A stretch of DNA of 64,000 nt from an uncultured Rikenella sp. (GCA_964579645.1 CAZOHL010000003.1:1375-65374); one strand, 5' to 3'. Counted from the stretch's first letter, positions 55,499 to 64,000 are shown. Made by a program: numbers and translations. The notes: generated from the sequence alone by a model not told the origin.

Positions 55499-55635
55499 GC
55501 CTTTTCACGGTTCGATGAAGCCGGTTTTTCACCTGTATGCTTCTGGCTCTTCACAGGCGCAGGGGATCGTAAAATCATGTTAAAAAACATTAAAAAAATA
55601 AAATCTTCCCTCTCGGCGTTACTACATGAAACAAG

Positions 55636-55643
55636 TATTTTTG
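55636..55643 (+). promoter_or_regulatory. Candidate -7 box TATTTTTG upstream of the FHA/kinase operon
   Basis: It matches TAnnTTTG and lies 46 nt upstream of the ATG at 55689, in a 190-bp AT-rich gap. Confidence 0.4.
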
Positions 55644-55688
55644 TAATACTTTGCTTTCGGCTCCATTTTACAAGCGATATATTTTTTT

Positions 55689-56339
55689 ATGAGATGTGAC
55701 AATTGTGGCTGGGATAATTCTGCCAACAGGGTAAGATGCGAAAAATGCAATACCAATCTCAGCGGTACGGAAAAGTCAGCTCCTGTTTCAGGGCAGGAAG
55801 CCGAAAACCTAAAAAAAACAATTAACGGAAGACAGCCTTCAGGCAATGACTACCTCGATTCACCAGGGGAGAGAGGAGAGAAGGTAACAACCAGGTGCAA
55901 AACCTGTGGTTATCCGGTGATAACAGGTGTTTCCCGGTGCCCTGAATGTGGAAATGTACTCCATTCAGATCGCGGGTCGGATGTGGAACCTGGTCCGGTA
56001 ATCTGGGGAGCCGGGCAAAAAACAATCGATCCGTTCAGAAGACCGGTACAGCCGAAGTTCTGCCTGCAGCCGCAATCCGGGGAAGATGAAATGGACCTTA
56101 AAGAGAAAAGCTATTCCGGTCACGAGGTGATACTTAACAGGGATAACCTTGAAGAAGGCAATATTACAATAACTGGAGGCCGCCAGGCTGTTATCACAAA
56201 CCGGGGCGGAAACTGGTTCATAGAAGACACAAGTCCCCGACAAACAACTTTCATTCAGGTTAATGGTTCAGTAAGACTGCAACCGGGTGATGTGATCCTG
56301 ATGGGTAACCGGAGATTTATCTTCAAACCCTGCGAATGA
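55689..56339 (+). CDS. Double zinc-ribbon protein with C-terminal degenerate FHA-like domain
   Basis: The ribbons are CDNCGWDNSANRVRCEKC and CKTCGYPVITGVSRCPEC. The C-terminus is VILNRDN...GGRQAVITNRGGNWFIEDTS..QTTFIQVNG...LQPGDVILMGNRRFIF, which has an FHA-like layout with non-canonical G-R and S-x-x-H positions. Confidence 0.6.
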   Translation: MRCDNCGWDNSANRVRCEKCNTNLSGTEKSAPVSGQEAENLKKTINGRQPSGNDYLDSPGERGEKVTTRCKTCGYPVITGVSRCPECGNVLHSDRGSDVEPGPVIWGAGQKTIDPFRRPVQPKFCLQPQSGEDEMDLKEKSYSGHEVILNRDNLEEGNITITGGRQAVITNRGGNWFIEDTSPRQTTFIQVNGSVRLQPGDVILMGNRRFIFKPCE

Positions 56340-57661
56340 AGGACGATTCTCCGGACAGTCTGGCCTCATACCAGATCCCTCAGCGATTCCTCCCCCAGGC
56401 AGGTGAGGTTATTGACAATTACAGGATCATAAAGATCCTTGGAGAAGGCACATTCGGCATTGTCTATAAGGTTGAAGAAGTGACCTCGGGTGATGTCTTT
56501 GCCCTCAAGCTGCTCAAACTATGGTCTATAGCTTATGAGGAAGAGCGGCGGCTTGTGCTTCAGCGCTTCGATCTTGAATATAAGACAGGTCTGATAGAAA
56601 GCGACTACCTGGTGTGTTCCAGGGGCTGTGGCCGGGCAAAGGGAAATCCTTATATCCTCATGGAATTTTGTCCGGGTGGCGACCTGAGAAAAGCCGGCGA
56701 TTCAGGGCTTTCCGCCGAAAGACTGTACCGTGCAGGCATAGAAATTCTTTTAGGCCTCAGGGACTTGCACGATAACGGCAAGATACACCGTGACCTCAAG
56801 CCGGATAATGTGCTTCTTGATGAGAAAGGGAGAGCGAAACTGACTGACTTTGGCATCTCCGGGCATAAAAATGTCCGTATGACAAAACGCAACCTTTTCG
56901 GTCAGCCTCAGGAAGTATTCGGAACCTACGCATACATGCCTCCCGAACAGCTAAAACCAAGGGATGCAACCAAGCTGCCTGCAACTGACATTTATTCTTT
57001 CGGAGTGCTTATTTTCGAATTGTTAACAGGAAAACTTCCATTCGGCCCCCTGAAAACAGAGTCAGACCTTGGTGAATACGTAAGCCGGGTAAATACCTCA
57101 CGATGGGACGACATCCGGACCCTGCGCCCGGACATAGATCATTCATGGGCTCGTGTGATAGAAAAATGTCTTCAGCCGGATTACCGGAAAAGATATGCCT
57201 CAGTCCTTGAAATACTTAACGATCTGGGTGTTGAGCCCGGGGCAGACCTTCCGGAACCGGAACCCGGGAAAACTGATTTTGCGTTGCAGGTGAAACAGGG
57301 GGAAGATTCCGGCAGGATATATAATCTGGAAGAATTGAAGAGATCGAAGGGTACTGCTAGGTTTCTGGTAGGGCGGAATGATGAAGAGGAGGCTATTTTC
57401 AACGACGTCGATATCAGGGAAACACCCCCTGACGGAAAAAACTATTATATCTCGAGGAAGCAGGCGACAATAGAACATGACCCTTCAACCGGCAGATGGT
57501 ACCTCAGAGACGGACAGTGGGCAAGAGAGGAAAGAACCTGGAAAAATTCACTTAACGGGTCTTTTGTGAACTCCTACAGGGCAGGAGAGGAGGGGTATCC
57601 TCTGAATCCGGGCGATATAATTACGCTGGGTGAAACCACACTCAAGGTAACTTTTGTATGA
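56336..57661 (+). CDS. Soluble Hanks-type Ser/Thr protein kinase with C-terminal FHA domain
   Basis: Kinase motifs are GEGTFGIVYKV, VFALKLLK, HRDLKPDNVLL, DFGIS and YMPPEQ. The FHA domain is FLVGRNDEE...ISRKQATIEHD...WYLRDG...SLNGSFVN...PGDIITLGETTLKV. No TM helix is present. The start overlaps the upstream stop (ATGA). Confidence 0.85.
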   Translation: MKDDSPDSLASYQIPQRFLPQAGEVIDNYRIIKILGEGTFGIVYKVEEVTSGDVFALKLLKLWSIAYEEERRLVLQRFDLEYKTGLIESDYLVCSRGCGRAKGNPYILMEFCPGGDLRKAGDSGLSAERLYRAGIEILLGLRDLHDNGKIHRDLKPDNVLLDEKGRAKLTDFGISGHKNVRMTKRNLFGQPQEVFGTYAYMPPEQLKPRDATKLPATDIYSFGVLIFELLTGKLPFGPLKTESDLGEYVSRVNTSRWDDIRTLRPDIDHSWARVIEKCLQPDYRKRYASVLEILNDLGVEPGADLPEPEPGKTDFALQVKQGEDSGRIYNLEELKRSKGTARFLVGRNDEEEAIFNDVDIRETPPDGKNYYISRKQATIEHDPSTGRWYLRDGQWAREERTWKNSLNGSFVNSYRAGEEGYPLNPGDIITLGETTLKVTFV

Positions 57662-57723
57662 CTTTTCCGACAATGCGATCATAATACAGAGAAGAAAATT
57701 CACGATCTGCTAACACAATAACC

Positions 57724-59190
57724 ATGACAAAAGAAACCACAATCAACGAGCCTAATCGTTTCTCCAAATCGGTTGGAGCCGGAATGAAATCAGTTTTCGG
57801 ATCCAAAGGCAGGAGCTATTTCGTACTTGAGCACCTCGACTCATCAAAAAAACACAAAAAGGGTGAAAGCCAGGAAATAATTATTGACCACATTGAGATA
57901 GGGCGCGATCCGAAATGCCAGGTCGTTTTCGCCGAAGATTTTCCGACAGTTAGCAGGCGCCATGCATCAATCACCCGTGAAGGTGACAAATGGGTTCTCA
58001 AGCAACTTTCAGAAAAAAATCCGACCCTGGTAAACGGAAAACCTATAGCCAAATCATGGTTTCTGCAGTCAGGTGATGAAATTAAGTTTTCCTATGAAGG
58101 ACCTTCGGTCAGGTTCTTTGTCCCAGGCAACAACACCGTGGGCACGCTTGGGTTTACAAAGCGGCTGAACCTCTTCAGAAAGCAGGCTTTGCGTCCATAT
58201 AAAGCAGCGATGTCCATCCTTGCAGCCGTATTTGTCCTGGCATTTCTCGGATTGGGATATTTTATCCGGCAGCAGTCAAAAGTAATCGAGACTCAGAACA
58301 CAATGCTTTCCGATCTGAAAACTGTAACTGAGCAACAGGCTGCAGAGCTTATAGAACAGAACCGGAAAAACGAGGAACTTGTAAGTTCACTGAAAGAGAA
58401 GATCAGGACCATTGAGAGTGTTCAGGTCGAACAGTCTTCCCGTCTGGCCTCCACCCAGGCCGATGTAAGTGTTGAAGCAATTTATCCGAGCGTATTTTAT
58501 CTTTATTGCCAGGGTATTTCGATAAGGATGCCTGATGGAACAGAATACAGTGCAGATGATTTTGGCTGGTCGGGTACCGGATTCCTCCTCGATGACGGAA
58601 GATTGGTGACTGCCCGCCATGTGGTAGAACCATGGTACTATCCAAGTTCTTCAGAAGATCCCTCACTGGGCATCAACGCGATGATACAGATGGGTGCTGT
58701 CCTTGATTACACCCTGGTTGCCGTTTCGCCCGGAGGAGCAGCATACAATTTAAGAGGTGATTCTTTCCGGATCAATAAATCAAAGGACCAGACCGTCACC
58801 CTGTCAGACGGCAATGTTGTAAAACTTGCTCCGTTGCCTGATGATTCAGACTGGGCCTATGCAACAACCAACCTCAGGGGCACCCTTCAGATTGATAATC
58901 AGCTTGCGGGTTCCCTTCAAACGCAAAGCGAACTCCACATACTGGGGTATCCTCTTAGCCTTGGTGCAACCAACCCTGATGATATTTCTCCGCTTTACAG
59001 CACAACACGGGTTGCCAGGACAGGCTTGCATGACGGTCTCATCTACACAACCGACAGGAACTTTGACCATGGGAACTCGGGTGGACCTGTAATGTACTAT
59101 CAGAACGGAAGCTACAAGGTAGTGGGAATTGTCTCAGCCGGTACCGGCGACGCTGTTGGATTTATTGTGCCAGTCTCAGCTCTCTATTAA
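57724..59190 (+). CDS. FHA domain - TM helix - coiled coil - trypsin-like (S1/Trypsin_2) serine protease
   Basis: The FHA domain is IEIGRDPKCQVVF...VSRRHASITREGDKWVLKQLS.KNPTLVNG...LQSGDEIKF. The TM helix is AAMSILAAVFVLAFLGLGYFI. The protease triad context is TARHVV (His), SDWAY (Asp) and HGNSGGPV (Ser). Confidence 0.8.
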   Translation: MTKETTINEPNRFSKSVGAGMKSVFGSKGRSYFVLEHLDSSKKHKKGESQEIIIDHIEIGRDPKCQVVFAEDFPTVSRRHASITREGDKWVLKQLSEKNPTLVNGKPIAKSWFLQSGDEIKFSYEGPSVRFFVPGNNTVGTLGFTKRLNLFRKQALRPYKAAMSILAAVFVLAFLGLGYFIRQQSKVIETQNTMLSDLKTVTEQQAAELIEQNRKNEELVSSLKEKIRTIESVQVEQSSRLASTQADVSVEAIYPSVFYLYCQGISIRMPDGTEYSADDFGWSGTGFLLDDGRLVTARHVVEPWYYPSSSEDPSLGINAMIQMGAVLDYTLVAVSPGGAAYNLRGDSFRINKSKDQTVTLSDGNVVKLAPLPDDSDWAYATTNLRGTLQIDNQLAGSLQTQSELHILGYPLSLGATNPDDISPLYSTTRVARTGLHDGLIYTTDRNFDHGNSGGPVMYYQNGSYKVVGIVSAGTGDAVGFIVPVSALY

Positions 59191-59272
59191 CCTTCAGAAA
59201 CAATACAGTAAATTCTTGTTTTAGACACGATCTCCCCGGATCAGAACGCCGGGCCGTAAAAAAATCAAATCT

Positions 59273-62203
59273 ATGAACCTTAAGGAAAATGCACTATTTG
59301 CCGGACGTTACCTGCTGCTGAAACTGATTGGTGTGGGAGGATTCTCTGAAGTATGGCTGGCCACCGACCAGATGACAGAGGATACAAGGGTCGCCATTAA
59401 AGTTTTCGTTCCGGACAAAGGCCTGGACGAAGACGGGATTCACCAGTTCCGGAAGGAGTATGCCCTCACCCAGCCCCTGAACCATTCAAACCTGCTTAAA
59501 GCAAACTATTTCGATATATTCGAGTCTTCGCCTTACCTGGTGATGCCTTTCATGGAAAACGGGTCGCTCAGCAAACTGATGTACAAGAAAGGGACTTTCA
59601 GTGAAGAGGAGATCGTCGAGATCATAAGGCAGATCGGCTCGGGGATGGCCTATCTTCACAGGAACAACATCGTTCACCAGGACATCAAGCCGGACAATAT
59701 TCTTGTTGACCGGGAGGACAATTACCTTCTGACGGACTTCGGGATAAGCAGTAAAATGAGGAATACCCTGACACGTCATTCCACCAGTAAAACTGCGATG
59801 ACAGTATCGTACGCGCCACCTGAGCGTTTTGGCAAGTACCCGCAGACAACACCTGCAGGTGATATTTTCTCCTTTGGTGTGATGATGTATGAACTCACCA
59901 CAGGCGAGGTTCCCTGGATGGGTGCCGGCGGAGTGGTCCTCAGAAGTGACGATCAGGTGCCCTTGATCCCTGAAACCTACTCACCCGCGCTTTCTTCGAT
60001 CATTGAGAAATGCATGTCGGTTGACCCGGCAAACCGACCCACCGCTCGCGATCTTGCTGACTTTGCAAACGATTATTTCTACAAAAAAAGCCAGCCTCCT
60101 GCACCAGTCAAGGGAGGGAAGAAGACTGTTCTTCTCAATCATGATGCTGTACAGTATGATCAGCCACCTTCCGGAGAAAAGCGATCCGGTACCCGCAAGG
60201 GGAGTGAAACCGTGATAGACAACAGACAGGGGCAGAAGGGAAAGATTAAAGCAACTGTAGCGGGGGCTTCATCAAAGGAACAGGCATACCAGGCTGATTC
60301 GCAGGAGACTGTAAAATCACGTAAAAACCGCAGACCCGGACTGAAAGTAATCATTCCTGCTGCCTGCCTGGTTGTTGCTGCCGGAGCCTTCGTATTCTGG
60401 AATTTCAGCCGGACAAAGGTCGTTTATTACAAAAACTATGTTGAAGAATGGGGCGTTCCGCAGGGCATCCATGAGCTGACCGCCGAGGAGGTCAGCAGCC
60501 GTAATGCAAGCTACAAATTTGTCTTCTCAAAGGGTAAATTGAGGGAGATGAGCCGGGTCAACAGTAATGGATCCATCTCACCGCACAACGACTCTGAGCA
60601 GTTGGAACGGCCGGATCTCGCAACTTTTGTCTATAACAGGAACGGTGACCTTGATTATACGGAGGTTAAAGACAGAAATGGAATCGTTTACCTGGCAGAT
60701 TACGACCTGAAGGGAAAATCGGTAAGCTTTACCTACAACGATGTCTTAAGAACTCCGTATTACCTTACCGGCCGAACCTCGGCCTTTAAAGAAAATCCAT
60801 TTGCCACAAAGGGAAAGGTTAAAGGCAGCATTTCACGCTTTAACCTCACTTTTGACGACAAAGGCAGAGTTGTACAGGTTCTGTTTGCAAACCCGGACAA
60901 CATCAGCACCGGTGACCAGGATGCCGTTTACGGAAGGAAATACCTTTACGATGAAAGAGGCAACCTTACTCAGAAAACACTGATTGGAAGGGATGGCGGT
61001 AACGAAAACAACAACTCATTGATAAGCATTTCCAGGTATAAGTTTGATCAGGAAGACAACTGGATCTCTTCGGAATGGATTGACAGGGACAATAAGCCGG
61101 CACTCTGCAATAATGGCTTTTTCAGGGAGGAAAATACATTTGATACTTTTGGGAACATTGTTAAGGTTCTTCATTTTGACAGGAAGAACAATCTTTGTTT
61201 AACGTCTGATCTAGGCATTGCCGGCAATGTGCTGCAATACAACTCCAGTGGTCAGTGTATCAGGCAGGAATTTACTGACATTGCCGGGAAACTGACCCTG
61301 TCGAAATACGGAATGGCAATTGTAAAGTACACATATGACGAGTCTGGGAATATATCCAGGTATGAATACTTCGATGTAAATGACCAGCCGTGCCTGAGCA
61401 GGAACGGAGTGTTCGCAATTGCCTATAATTATGACAGCAGGGGTAACCAGACGGAATACTGGAACTACAACCTGGAAAACAAGTATTGCATCAACACCGA
61501 GAACGGCATTGCCGGTGAGACATTGACATATGATGCAGGCGGGAATGTTGTCAAGGCCCGCAATTTTAACGCAAACAGGGAACCACTGAATTCGGAATAC
61601 TATTACGCCGGGGTGGATCTTCAATATGACCTGCATAATAACATTCTGGAGCGTAAGCTGATAGTCCCTGAAAGATTACGGGCAGCCAATCCTGAATATA
61701 GGGATGTATCTGCACTGATTATCAGGTATAAGTACGACCTGCGCAATAATATCATTGAGGAGTCTTATCATGATCAGAATGGCGCTCCTTTCCTGTACAG
61801 CAAGGATTATCACGGCTCTTTGTCGGAATATGATGAGCGGGGAAATGTAACAAAGGTTAGCTATTTTGGATTAAACAGGGAACCTGCACGCGTGACGGTC
61901 CAGGCCATTTATGTAAAAAGACAATACGACCGGAAAAGCAATCTGATAGAAGAATCGTATTACGATAAAAACGATCAGCCCACCTATAACTACCCGGGTG
62001 GTTTTGCCGGATTTACAGCTACATATAACGACAGAAATCTTCAGACAAGCTGGAAACATTTTGATGTAAACCGTCAGCTTGCCGGTCTTAATGCTTCCGT
62101 CGTCGGAGCCGTCAGTACTTACGATGAAAATGGTACACTTATCGAAACCTATTACATCAACAAGAATCAGGAAAAGGTTGACTGGCGTGGCAACAGGATT
62201 TAA
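59273..62203 (+). CDS. Membrane Ser/Thr protein kinase (non-RD, HQD) with ~600-aa extracytoplasmic YD/RHS-like repeat domain
   Basis: Kinase motifs are GVGGFSEVWLA, VAIKVF, HQDIKPDNILV, DFGIS and YAPPER. A low-complexity K/Q/S linker is followed by the TM helix LKVIIPAACLVVAAGAFVFW. At least 9 repeats of the form x-Y-D-x-x-G-N-h-h-x-x-x-h-h-D-x-x-x-x-P follow (YTYDESGNISRYEYFDVNDQP, YNYDSRGNQTEYWNYN, LTYDAGGNVVKARNFNANREP, YKYDLRNNIIEESYHDQNGAP, SEYDERGNVTKVSYFGLNREP, RQYDRKSNLIEESYYDKNDQP, STYDENGTLIETYYINKNQE). Confidence 0.8.
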   Translation: MNLKENALFAGRYLLLKLIGVGGFSEVWLATDQMTEDTRVAIKVFVPDKGLDEDGIHQFRKEYALTQPLNHSNLLKANYFDIFESSPYLVMPFMENGSLSKLMYKKGTFSEEEIVEIIRQIGSGMAYLHRNNIVHQDIKPDNILVDREDNYLLTDFGISSKMRNTLTRHSTSKTAMTVSYAPPERFGKYPQTTPAGDIFSFGVMMYELTTGEVPWMGAGGVVLRSDDQVPLIPETYSPALSSIIEKCMSVDPANRPTARDLADFANDYFYKKSQPPAPVKGGKKTVLLNHDAVQYDQPPSGEKRSGTRKGSETVIDNRQGQKGKIKATVAGASSKEQAYQADSQETVKSRKNRRPGLKVIIPAACLVVAAGAFVFWNFSRTKVVYYKNYVEEWGVPQGIHELTAEEVSSRNASYKFVFSKGKLREMSRVNSNGSISPHNDSEQLERPDLATFVYNRNGDLDYTEVKDRNGIVYLADYDLKGKSVSFTYNDVLRTPYYLTGRTSAFKENPFATKGKVKGSISRFNLTFDDKGRVVQVLFANPDNISTGDQDAVYGRKYLYDERGNLTQKTLIGRDGGNENNNSLISISRYKFDQEDNWISSEWIDRDNKPALCNNGFFREENTFDTFGNIVKVLHFDRKNNLCLTSDLGIAGNVLQYNSSGQCIRQEFTDIAGKLTLSKYGMAIVKYTYDESGNISRYEYFDVNDQPCLSRNGVFAIAYNYDSRGNQTEYWNYNLENKYCINTENGIAGETLTYDAGGNVVKARNFNANREPLNSEYYYAGVDLQYDLHNNILERKLIVPERLRAANPEYRDVSALIIRYKYDLRNNIIEESYHDQNGAPFLYSKDYHGSLSEYDERGNVTKVSYFGLNREPARVTVQAIYVKRQYDRKSNLIEESYYDKNDQPTYNYPGGFAGFTATYNDRNLQTSWKHFDVNRQLAGLNASVVGAVSTYDENGTLIETYYINKNQEKVDWRGNRI

Positions 62204-62306
62204 TTACCGGACAACTGTGACCTGCATTTTCATCAGAAAGTATATTTACAGATTAAAATTTTCACAACCGGAGCGTAACCGAATCGCTCCCTAACCTGAT
62301 AGAATT

Positions 62307-63512
62307 ATGGCAAGCAACACCACCCTCATGATCGCCGCACGAACCGATGTCGGCAGGGTCCGTGACCACAACGAGGACAATTTCATAGTTTGCCCGGACC
62401 TTGAACAGCAGAAATGGCATTTCGAAAACAACAGGATCGTCAGCCCTGGCGAAGCGGGGACTCTCCTGGTGGTGGCTGACGGGATGGGGGGGATGAATGC
62501 CGGCGAGGTTGCATCCAGGATTGCGGTTGATGCAATTAAATCCGTTTTCGGCGAGAAAATAAAACCCGGCTTTGTTCCTGACGACAACCTCATTGATAGC
62601 ACCCTGAAGGCTTCGGTAAAGCTTGCCAACAAGGAAATACTCAGAGAACAGCAACGTGATCCGGAGACCGAAGGTATGGGCACCACCATTGTTATTGCAT
62701 GGATCATAGGTGGTCGCCTTTATTGTGCCTGGTGCGGTGACAGCCGTTGTTATATTTACAATCCCGGTCTTGCCTCAGACAGTGAGCGGGCGGGCCGGTT
62801 TGCGGAAAGCCGGCACCATGTTTCGGGGAACCTTGCCCAGGTCACCAAAGACCACAGTGAGGTTCAGGAGCTGGTCGACAGGGGTATACTTACGGTCGAG
62901 CAGGCATTTTATCATCCGAACAGCAATATAATTACACGCAGCCTAGGTAGTGACGAGGGAGGAGCAACGCCGGAGCTGTTCACATGCGACATCAAACCTG
63001 GCGACCGGATACTTCTTTGCAGTGACGGACTGTGCGGACTGCTGACTGACGAGCAGATATGTGAGGGGGTGAAGGCTGAGCCAGACCCCGGCGAATGTGT
63101 GCGGAGCCTGGTAGATGCCGCCAACGATGCCGGCGGAAATGATAATATTACGGTCGTAATGACCGACGTGAAGGAGGTTGGGTCAGTGGCAACTGTTACA
63201 GTCAGTGAGAAACGCCGGAAAAGGTACTTTCCGGGAATCCTGCTGGCTGCTGTTGCAATGTTGCTTACAGGCTACTTAATTTTCAGGGAAAAGGATAACG
63301 GATTCCTTGTCCTGGTTTCTCCGTCAGCCTTTGTCGATGCGAGCGGCGATACTATAACGGTCCCGGCTTCAGATTCCCTAAGCCTCTCGCCGGGACGGCA
63401 GTTCACCCTAGAAATGATTGCCTGTGACAGCACTGAGGTCAGGGATGGGGGTGATTCCCTGGCAATACTTGACAAAGGGGCAACTGTTTACATAAGGCCA
63501 CAGGAGAAATAA
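62307..63512 (+). CDS. Membrane-anchored PP2C-family Ser/Thr phosphatase with ~75-aa extracytoplasmic tail
   Basis: Motifs are RTDVGRVRDHNEDNF, VADGMGG, CGDSRCY, LCSDGL and GGNDNITVV. The TM helix is YFPGILLAAVAMLLTGYLIF, followed by a 75-aa C-terminal domain. Confidence 0.85.
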   Translation: MASNTTLMIAARTDVGRVRDHNEDNFIVCPDLEQQKWHFENNRIVSPGEAGTLLVVADGMGGMNAGEVASRIAVDAIKSVFGEKIKPGFVPDDNLIDSTLKASVKLANKEILREQQRDPETEGMGTTIVIAWIIGGRLYCAWCGDSRCYIYNPGLASDSERAGRFAESRHHVSGNLAQVTKDHSEVQELVDRGILTVEQAFYHPNSNIITRSLGSDEGGATPELFTCDIKPGDRILLCSDGLCGLLTDEQICEGVKAEPDPGECVRSLVDAANDAGGNDNITVVMTDVKEVGSVATVTVSEKRRKRYFPGILLAAVAMLLTGYLIFREKDNGFLVLVSPSAFVDASGDTITVPASDSLSLSPGRQFTLEMIACDSTEVRDGGDSLAILDKGATVYIRPQEK

Positions 63513-63569
63513 GGGATAAATAGCACCAGAACCAGGTCATGCAGGGTCATAGGTTCTGGCATAAATCAG

Positions 63570-63606
63570 AAAGAGGCTGCCCCTTTTGAGACAGCCTCTT
63601 TTCTTT
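63570..63606 (+). terminator. Rho-independent terminator closing the FHA/kinase operon
   Basis: AAAGAGGCTG-ccccttttgaga-CAGCCTCTTTTCTTTC forms a stem followed by a T-rich tail, 58 nt after the PP2C stop. Confidence 0.75.
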
Positions 63607-63712: not shown

Positions 63713-64000
63713 ATGAAAACAATGACATTGATTATGGGATGCCTGTTGTTAATTTTGTTCTCTTGTGAATATCATCAAGATAATGGAATAACTAGCATTG
63801 ATGACGTAATTGCCTCTGACTATCTGCTTACTGATGATTTGGATGAATACATAAGTCCGTATCAGATAGTAAGATTTACTGGCAAACCAGGAATTACAAC
63901 AATCGAAATTGGTGGTACTGATCTTTCGAAGTACCAACCTTGTTTTGTCCTGTATGTAGCAACAGGAACCACGCCTGAAACGACCGCTACAAGTGCAATA
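63713..64000 (+). CDS. Lipoprotein of unknown function (N-terminal part; continues beyond window)
   Basis: My own translation gives MKTMTLIMGCLLLILFSCEYHQDNGITSIDDVIASDYLLTDDLDEYISPYQIVRF... It has a lipobox (LFSC) and is open to the window end in frame. It is absent from the ORF track because no stop codon is present. The region is visibly more AT-rich than the rest of the window. Confidence 0.55.
   Translation, partial: MKTMTLIMGCLLLILFSCEYHQDNGITSIDDVIASDYLLTDDLDEYISPYQIVRFTGKPGITTIEIGGTDLSKYQPCFVLYVATGTTPETTATSAI

Follow-up and report, generated by a model that had tools for sequence, protein, structure and literature searches.

Forkhead-associated (FHA) domains bind phosphothreonine (pThr), Hanks-type Ser/Thr kinases of the RD class require phosphorylation of their activation loop, and kinases of the PknB type draw FHA proteins to themselves via pThr residues of the juxtamembrane segment. 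HtrA proteases function as trimers. In mycobacteria, the phosphatase and the kinases of the fhaA-fhaB(fipA)-pstP-rodA-pbpA-pknA-pknB operon are co-transcribed, and the kinases phosphorylate FHA proteins (PMC6213207). Judged by its parts, this FipA/PstP/PknA/PknB set appears to be the closest analogue of the gene cluster described here, which comprises five open reading frames (ORFs), designated g1 to g5, at positions 55689-63512 of a 64-kb stretch of DNA from an uncultured Rikenella sp. (in the following "the window", meaning the whole stretch that was analyzed). All five lie on the plus strand and encode a Zn-ribbon/FHA protein (g1, 55689-56339, 216 amino acids (aa)), a soluble kinase-FHA fusion (g2, 56336-57661, 441 aa), an FHA protein with a transmembrane (TM) segment and an S1 protease domain (g3, 57724-59190, 488 aa), a membrane kinase (g4, 59273-62203, 976 aa) and a PP2C phosphatase (g5, 62307-63512, 401 aa). 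We consider it highly probable that these five genes constitute a co-functional phospho-signalling module.

The first two genes overlap by 4 bp (ATGA), and gaps of 62, 82 and 103 bp separate g2 from g3, g3 from g4 and g4 from g5, respectively. In the public gene call, the start of g5 lies 7 codons further downstream. The ORF analysis agrees with an initial annotation, made from the sequence alone, which had described five co-directional genes with gaps of 62-103 bp and an ATGA overlap. All of its domain calls (FHA, Pkinase, PP2C, Trypsin_2 and RHS repeat) were confirmed by profile searches on the five proteins, and motif alignments showed that the catalytic residues of both kinases, the PP2C phosphatase and the protease are intact.

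Relatives of g3 are numerous. A protein collection clustered at 90% identity contains more than 2,000 of them in full length (about 500 aa), with 308 representatives at 50% identity (E<=1e-30). In a genome scan with one genome per species, relatives were present in at least 273 genomes, and the best 80 of these at least 273 loci were analyzed by domain-level tblastn and clustering of ORF families. Counts are given over 81 loci, in which the protease is present in 81/81 by construction. The 80 loci derive from Bacteroidales (labelled Rikenellaceae, Alistipes, Prevotellaceae, Bacteroidaceae, Tannerellaceae, Muribaculaceae, Paludibacteraceae and Odoribacter), Lewinellaceae/Saprospiraceae (including the isolate Phaeodactylibacter xiamenensis), Runella, Chitinophagales and Lentimicrobiaceae. 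Forty loci from other species extend at least 4.5 kb to either side of the protease gene and were taken as informative. All five core components are present on one strand in 38 of these 40, and in the remaining two only the Zn-ribbon/FHA gene was undetected. The genes flanking the cluster vary between lineages. This comparison of neighbourhoods across Bacteroidota bears out the earlier proposal that the five genes are a functional unit.

The usual order within the cluster is Zn-ribbon/FHA gene, soluble kinase-FHA gene, an optional slot, FHA-TM-protease gene, a further optional slot, PP2C gene and one to four membrane kinase genes, the latter often trailed by genes for secreted partner proteins. 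The five genes of the window are the minimal core of this larger Bacteroidota cluster. Their order is unusual in that the membrane kinase gene g4 precedes the PP2C gene g5. The window cluster also forms a long branch, with g3 sharing at most 47% identity with any orthologue of another species. Identity to the Rikenellaceae-labelled metagenome-assembled genomes (MAGs) L014, L019 and L083 is 41-44%, the taxon labels of MAGs being unreliable, while the orthologues of Alistipes, Odoribacter, Bacteroidaceae and Paraprevotella are 60-68% identical among themselves. The long branch may reflect rapid evolution, descent from a paralogous lineage or an ancient transfer within the phylum. For g3, a counterpart with 97% protein identity is found in a Rikenellaceae MAG labelled "uncultured Rikenella sp.", and several public metagenome contigs, from wastewater and other sources, carry an identical g3 protein in the same neighbourhood. 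Searches of 72,556 plasmids, 50,697 phage records and 2.9 million viral contigs gave no relative of g3. The distribution of the cluster looks housekeeping-like, and the cluster itself looks like a main Hanks-kinase hub of Bacteroidota.

Among the conserved components of the cluster, the periplasmic protease is the only enzyme that does not act on phosphate groups. The g3 protein (57724-59190, plus strand) consists of an N-terminal helix (aa 12-24), an FHA domain (58-122), a TM segment (160-183), a stalk reaching to residue 234 and an S1 protease domain (250-488); Pfam reports FHA with 64 bits together with Trypsin_2/Trypsin. The catalytic triad H299/D376/S452 is invariant in 119 homologues, in accordance with the trypsin-like protease with intact H/D/S residues called initially, and so are the FHA residues G60, R61, S77, H80 and N99 across 119 sequences. 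The helix preceding the FHA domain (window 57757-57795) is conserved as FSKSxGAGxKSxFG, with G18 invariant and S16 and S23 nearly so. A structural model based on the 119-sequence alignment (mean predicted local distance difference test score (pLDDT) 91) comprises the N-terminal helix, the FHA sandwich, a continuous helix from residue 157 to 234, a disordered hinge and a domain of chymotrypsin fold. The continuous helix comprises the TM segment and, beyond it, a stalk about 50 residues long. The best Foldseek matches of the protease domain are the protease domains of HtrA1, DegP, Deg1 and HtrA2 (E about 1e-10, target-normalised TM-score about 0.6). Neither Pfam nor the model revealed a PDZ domain in g3, and the protein ends at the protease domain. 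For the FHA domain, the best NCBIfam match is FhaB/FipA (43.5 bits) and the best sequence matches in the PDB are mycobacterial GarA and TB39.8. Relatives of g3 carry only the public names "FHA domain-containing protein" or "S1-C subfamily serine protease". By analogy, g3 may represent a DegS-like design in which a cytoplasmic FHA phospho-sensor takes the place of the periplasmic PDZ domain.

Both kinases carry the features of Hanks-type Ser/Thr kinases, i.e. a Pkinase match, the VAIK Lys, an HxD...N catalytic loop and DFG. The g2 protein (56336-57661, plus strand) is a soluble RD kinase (aa 29-292, HRD at 151-153, DFG) with a C-terminal FHA domain (aa 344-432), which score 146 and 40 bits in Pfam, respectively. 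Its catalytic loop reads HRDLKPDN and is followed by DFG; the VAIK Lys K58 and the activation-loop residues T183 and T197 are conserved. The FHA pocket is formed by G346 R347, S373..Q376 and N407 G408, the consensus residue at position 376 being His. The g4 protein (59273-62203, plus strand) has a non-RD kinase domain (15-261, HQD at 135-137), a linker (265-354), a TM segment (355-379) and an ectodomain (395-976). Pfam reports Pkinase (171 bits) and RHS repeat, and the catalytic loop reads HQDIKPDN, followed by DFG. Motifs and topology agree with the two writers postulated earlier, a soluble RD kinase-FHA protein and a membrane non-RD kinase with a repeat ectodomain. Among the orthologues, HRD is found in 66/68 soluble kinase-FHA proteins and HQD in 68/83 membrane kinases of related loci. 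Thus, the RD/non-RD contrast is a property of the system and not of this genome.

The juxtamembrane linker of g4 (265-354) is rich in Thr and contains four TV motifs. Across the linkers of 71 membrane kinases, Thr makes up 9.4% of the residues, T[VI] occurs 85 times as compared to 54 +/- 7 in shuffled sequences, none of which reached 85, and TQ shows a 2.3-fold enrichment. When the ectodomains of 73 membrane kinases were clustered by sequence, at least 22 unrelated groups resulted, among them short coiled coils, multi-TM domains and repeats of the Sel1 and YD types. The cytoplasmic core remains constant; this is the pattern expected for a hub with interchangeable inputs. In g4, the ectodomain consists of 580 aa of YD/Rhs-type beta-hairpin repeats, modelled as a regular array of two-stranded YD repeats (pLDDT 87, predicted template modelling score 0.83). 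Foldseek aligned it with Rhs, Tc and teneurin structures with E values from 1e-22 to 1e-15 at global TM-scores of 0.15-0.39. The nearest relatives of the g4 region comprising the TM segment, a post-TM motif YY..WG[LV]P.G and the YD ectodomain (window 60335-62200; proteins P0269 and P0272) are about 50 protein clusters with a cytoplasmic TIR head in place of a kinase, and a few carry PDZ or PF20703 in this position. It seems that one receptor ectodomain has been swapped between kinase and TIR heads.

The soluble g1 protein (55689-56339, plus strand) contains two Zn ribbons (C3, C6, C17, C20 and C70, C73, C84, C87) and an atypical FHA domain at about aa 140-212, for which the Pfam match is weak (22.4 bits). 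Members of this family are present in 64/81 loci. The FHA domain belongs to an atypical subfamily with the pattern LNRxN...ITSxxQA...TTF; in the pocket, R151 is kept and QA and TT stand in place of HA and NG. At the position of the pThr-contacting Ser, g1 has G163 (window 56175-56177), whereas 51 of 60 orthologues have Ser. The canonical FHA residues (GR, SxxH, NG) are thus present in g3, in g2 with Gln for His, and in g1 only in part. The three pThr readers counted in the initial annotation are therefore better described as two canonical FHA domains, those of g2 and g3, plus one divergent domain, since the FHA domain of g1 is atypical and carries Gly in place of Ser. Two Thr residues of g1, each located in a linker C-terminal to a Zn ribbon, are invariant or nearly so: Thr44 (L-N/K-K/G-T-V/I-x-E) in 59/60 and Thr112 (G-T-V/I-N/D-P-W/F) in 60/60 orthologues.

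The g5 protein (62307-63512, plus strand) is composed of a PP2C domain, probably of the Stp1/PstP type (aa 17-286), a TM segment (307-328) and a non-conserved periplasmic tail of 73 aa. It scores 224.1 bits against the Stp1/IreP-type model NF033484, just short of the cut-off of 230, and 68 orthologues share its metal-binding motifs DGMGG, SDG and DN; the domain match and the intact motifs agree with the single eraser assigned to the operon. A single hydrophobic segment is present in each of the proteins g3, g4 and g5, flanked by 4-5 Lys/Arg residues on the N-terminal side as compared to 1-3 on the C-terminal side. This bias, which indicates an N-in orientation of all three, fits a cytoplasmic location of the predicted FHA, kinase and PP2C domains and a periplasmic location of the protease, the repeats and the 73-aa tail, and it upholds the earlier view of three single-pass proteins with their catalytic signalling domains inside.

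In relatives, the optional positions of the cluster are filled by further genes. In the first slot, 12-14 loci have a gene pair encoding an ExbD/TolR-like protein and a protein of the MotA/ExbB/TolQ family. The former is a single-pass protein with a coiled coil, a beta-rich C-domain and an N-terminus of the type KEINIFxxSFLDLLSGAL... with an invariant Asp; the latter scores 46-54 bits on PF01618. The pair lies between the kinase-FHA and FHA-protease genes, e.g. in L026 (8393-9985) and L030 (8345-9962), and is also found in L011, L012, L017, L021, L031, L037, L038, L050, L054 and L080; it hints at a coupling to a proton-driven stator. In 29 loci, the first slot instead holds a fourth FHA protein with a C-terminal multi-TM domain, the two contents being mutually exclusive. 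The second slot is occupied in 45/81 loci by X3, a secreted protein of about 290 aa with a charged C-terminal tail and no Pfam match, whose gene directly follows the protease gene (e.g. L026 11488-12486 and L030 11479-12375). X3 is a candidate substrate, inhibitor or partner of the protease. A tblastn search across the whole 64 kb of the window gave no match for X1cc, the ExbB-like protein or X3. Furthermore, genes for secreted proteins with BACON domains (25 loci), TPR (14 loci) or Sel1 repeats (9 loci) are located 3' of the membrane kinase genes, and these proteins possibly serve as co-sensors. Located among the kinase genes of related loci are also a SIR2-like gene (5 loci) and one resembling putAbiC. 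Positions of kinase-associated secreted, SIR2-like and putAbiC genes are L018 15261-16877 and 18068-19708, L048 7287-10140, L029 9920-10783 and L030 15860-16657.

Taken together, we regard the chances as evenly divided that the cluster is an envelope-sensing Hanks-kinase hub with FHA-coupled periplasmic HtrA-like proteolysis as its dedicated effector, operating by analogy with described systems in the following manner. The YD-repeat ectodomain of g4 would sense a periplasmic or envelope ligand; elsewhere, this role would fall to swapped ectodomains or to the BACON, TPR or Sel1 partner proteins. The g4 kinase would then phosphorylate its own Thr-rich juxtamembrane linker, and the resulting pThr sites would recruit FHA proteins. 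Docked g2 would be switched on by phosphorylation of its activation loop and thereby amplify the signal, g1 would be phosphorylated on Thr44 and Thr112 and serve as a scaffold, and docking of the g3 FHA domain would, via the TM helix and the stalk of about 50 residues, alter the position or the oligomeric state of the protease. The protease altered in this way would be licensed to cleave a periplasmic substrate, and the membrane-bound PP2C g5 would reset the system. Computed support for the hub comes from the co-occurrence of the genes, the conserved catalytic residues, the pThr-binding residues of g2 and g3, the RD/non-RD split and the topology. More tentatively, and with some doubt on our part, the cluster may generally represent a trans-envelope device in which an FHA domain reads Thr phosphorylation and a TM helix with stalk relays it to an HtrA-like protease, with swappable sensors and, in some lineages, coupling to a stator.

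Several observations weigh against this proteolytic hub. The window lacks X3, the most obvious candidate for a partner or substrate of the protease; g1 of the window lacks the pThr-contacting Ser; the FHA domain of g2 has Q376 (window 57461-57463) for the consensus His; and the enrichment of the linker motifs is modest. In addition, signalling could run either outside-in or inside-out, and unlinked substrates of g2 in the cytoplasm could be the actual outputs, the protease then being an accessory.

A related explanation, which overlaps with the proteolytic hub and differs from it mainly in the output, is that the cluster regulates envelope growth or division as a Bacteroidota counterpart of FipA/PstP/PknA/PknB, phosphorylating unlinked cytoplasmic or membrane proteins, for instance divisome or envelope-synthesis factors; the protease would be only one of its clients. 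We judge this to be on the unlikely side. It would account well for the parallel part list (FHA proteins, one of them single-pass, a TM-anchored PP2C with an extracytoplasmic tail, and two kinases), for the matches of the g3 FHA domain to FhaB/FipA (43.5 bits), GarA and TB39.8, and for the housekeeping-like distribution; in the mycobacterial system, moreover, FipA is a substrate of PknA and PknB, and PknB shares a transcript with PstP (PMC6213207). However, rodA/pbpA, PASTA and cell-wall genes are absent from the operon and from the recurrent genes of the 80 loci, the scores stay far below the cut-offs (PknB_PASTA 190 versus 450 bits, FipA 43.5 versus 125 bits), and conservation of the protease is no less strict than that of the kinases (81/81 by construction; full set in 38/40 loci). 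An output at the level of transcription, with g1 as a phosphorylation-controlled nucleic-acid-binding regulator like archaeal ArnA/ST0829, appears improbable to us. The architecture of g1 is that of ArnA, the PDB entry 5a8i being matched on the first Zn ribbon, and the invariant Thr sites of g1 would suit such a role, as would the binding of ST0829 to promoters under the influence of a Hanks kinase, as cited in PMC7472852. The match to ArnA is, however, not significant (E=0.64), Pfam finds no DNA-binding domain, the N-terminal 140 aa of g1 have a net charge of about zero by manual count, and Zn ribbons are generic interaction modules. Profile searches of the five proteins (Pfam, NCBIfam) gave no match to DNA-binding, sigma or receiver domains at E<=0.01. 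This confirms the reported lack of a DNA-binding domain, sigma factor or response regulator, but the further statement that the operon has no transcriptional output went too far, given the combination of Zn ribbons and FHA domain that g1 shares with archaeal ArnA and ST0829.

The initial annotation had also considered a kinase-gated defence or conflict module. In this case, the cluster would be an anti-phage system of the KKP type or of the MADS/PD-T4-6 type, with the protease as abortive effector, an explanation that we hold to be very improbable. The kinase domains do match the PADLOC models mad6 and PD-T4-6, g2 has the kinase-FHA architecture of the KKP protein PfkB (PMC11341870), the closest relatives of the g4 ectodomain bear TIR heads, and SIR2-like and putAbiC genes adjoin a few of the related loci. 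On the other hand, the PADLOC and NCBIfam matches are generic in kind and confined to the kinase or protease domain (MAD6 158.5 and 129.4 bits versus a cut-off of 460, PglW 45 versus 990), so that the PADLOC run on the locus did not speak for a conflict system. The kinase fused to a cold-shock domain (CSD) that is characteristic of KKP is absent, the core is kept across orders with a fixed gene order, GC content and neighbours are ordinary and housekeeping in kind, and relatives of g3 are widespread on chromosomes with none on plasmids, phages or viral contigs in the collections searched. Thus, the part of the earlier claim that concerns a phospho-signalling unit with a proteolytic effector gains support from co-occurrence and intact residues, whereas the conflict system does not. 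Finally, genes for Ser/Thr kinases, PP2C phosphatases and FHA proteins are common and might simply have come to lie side by side. The probability of this is negligible, since 38/40 loci of other species keep the full set of five together on one strand despite unrelated flanks, which refutes a chance juxtaposition.

An intergenic stretch of 190 bp precedes g1. It contains a weak terminator-like hairpin (55508-55523, plus strand) 3' of a CDP-alcohol phosphatidyltransferase gene, which is likely to be the 5' boundary of the five-gene unit, and a TAttTTTG box resembling the Bacteroidota -7-type consensus (55636-55643, plus strand), 46 bp before the ATG of g1. The TAnnTTTG motif occurs 35 times in the window as compared to 31 +/- 6 occurrences expected by chance. 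Because of this chance-level frequency, the box is a positional hint only and was rejected as promoter evidence; the gap and the box described initially are both there, but the latter is no evidence by itself. At the 3' boundary, an intrinsic-terminator-like hairpin (63570-63601, plus strand) has a 14-bp stem with 7 GC pairs, followed by a T-run (TTTTCTTTC), in line with the strong terminator noted before at the end of the operon. The same terminator scan also reported this palindrome on the minus strand. The GC content of the region is ordinary. Upstream of the cluster lie phospholipid-synthesis genes and a gene for a TonB-dependent receptor; the adjacency of the upstream genes to the cluster is not kept in other species. 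Downstream, genes for a C1 peptidase, XdhC and a molybdoenzyme follow. A gene beginning after the terminator (63715-64000 in the window) starts with a lipoprotein-like signal (MKTMTLIMGCLLLILFSC) and corresponds on public contigs to a 507-aa protein with MopE-like Cu-binding and C1 peptidase domains; it is not a conserved neighbour of the cluster in other species. Further upstream, at about 19500-42500, the window carries a SusC/SusD polysaccharide-utilisation locus with glycoside hydrolases GH3, GH16 and GH30 and a Y_Y_Y/GerE hybrid regulator, as well as the NrfAH nitrite reductase, PhoU/PHO4 and a CotH protein with a type IX secretion system sorting tail. This content is ordinary for Bacteroidales.

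If the proposed mechanism is correct, periplasmic proteolysis would be gated in a manner not recognised so far, which might amount to a Bacteroidota equivalent of the DegS-type envelope-stress switch. An FHA-coupled periplasmic protease would newly link phospho-signalling to regulated envelope proteolysis, with a possible bearing on envelope stress, surface remodelling and the sensing of host or nutrients by gut commensals. Bacteroidota dominate the human gut, and we found almost no published work on their signalling by Ser/Thr phosphorylation. No description of the cluster was found in the full text of about 8 million papers and preprints, a collection that leaves aside subscription-only literature. 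Since no named system was matched either, the system can, within this scope, be called undescribed as first suggested.

A comparison with the known systems places the cluster as follows. With type VI secretion system (T6SS) threonine phosphorylation (PpkA-PppA-Fha1/TagH) it has in common a membrane Hanks kinase with a periplasmic sensor, a PP2C phosphatase and an FHA client; in the T6SS pathway an envelope machine is gated, whereas here the client is a protease. The TagH/Fha equivalog TIGR03354 was rejected (32.8 bits versus a cut-off of 120.25). The earlier remark that tss genes are lacking is supported, as none was found in the annotated part of the window (about 19.5-64 kb) or among the recurrent genes of related loci. 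KKP, a prophage system composed of PfpC, PfkA and PfkB, likewise combines a PP2C phosphatase with two Hanks kinases, one of them fused to an FHA domain (PMC11341870). Our cluster differs in having a membrane receptor as its second kinase, a further two FHA proteins and a protease, and it does not reside in prophages. Moreover, the defining protein of KKP is a PfkA-like kinase fused to a cold-shock domain (PMC11341870); membership was rejected with a CSD in neither kinase, g2 nonetheless sharing the kinase-FHA architecture of the PfkB type. The kinases of MADS (MAD6), BREX (PglW) and PD-T4-6 were rejected as well, with MAD6 and PglW scoring far below the cut-offs, PADLOC alignments limited to the kinase domain and no methyltransferase or BREX partners. 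Double Zn ribbons joined to an FHA domain are known from cyanobacterial FraH. The archaellum regulator ArnA of archaea resembles g1 in its architecture of Zn ribbon(s), linker and FHA domain and in the position of its gene beside Hanks kinases, but there is no vWA partner (ArnB) here, the FHA domain of g1 belongs to a distinct atypical subfamily, and the match has an E value of 0.64. Binding of ST0829 to promoters has been reported, as cited in PMC7472852. The beta-hairpin YD repeats of the g4 ectodomain are shared with RhsA, the Tc toxin BC component and teneurins; in g4, however, the 580 aa of repeats make no closed cocoon and serve a receptor kinase as its periplasmic domain. Membership in the Rhs/YD toxins was rejected, the match being at the level of the repeats, with RHS_repeat as the only Pfam hit and no plug, aspartyl-protease or toxin domain.

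MarP has four N-terminal TM helices; g3 has a single one and scores 22.4 bits against the MarP (Rv3671c) model NF033740, which has a cut-off of 250, and membership was rejected. Like DegS and HtrA of the sigma-E pathway, g3 is a membrane-anchored periplasmic S1 protease with an HtrA fold and a single N-in TM segment, and by analogy its activity would be expected to be switched by a sensor domain. In contrast to DegS/HtrA, an FHA domain, a long stalk and a kinase/phosphatase operon replace the PDZ domain, and neither RseA/RseP nor a sigma factor is linked. Membership in the HtrA/DegP/DegS family was rejected, given the missing PDZ domain and scores of 16-18 bits against cut-offs of 416-470. The mycobacterial operon shares with the cluster several FHA proteins, one of them single-pass (FipA there), a PP2C with one TM segment and an extracytoplasmic tail (PstP), and two Hanks kinases, one of which is a membrane sensor. 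It differs in that our cluster has no RodA, PbpA or PASTA, one kinase is soluble and fused to an FHA domain, the single-pass FHA protein carries an HtrA-like protease, and the sensor is a YD-repeat domain. FtsW/RodA and transpeptidase domains were found neither in the operon nor in the recurrent genes of the 80 loci, as the initial annotation had it for rodA and pbpA. The PknB equivalog NF033483 was rejected (190.6 bits for g4 and 149.5 bits for g2 versus a cut-off of 450; no PASTA by Pfam), as was the FipA/FhaB equivalog NF049868 (43.5 bits versus 125, with the match limited to the FHA domain of g3). The statement that the operon fits no known module holds insofar as no named system was matched, but is overstated with regard to the parts, which parallel those of FipA/PstP/PknA/PknB. 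The parts are familiar; new are their fixed combination across a phylum and the architecture in which an FHA domain is joined through a TM segment to an HtrA-like protease.

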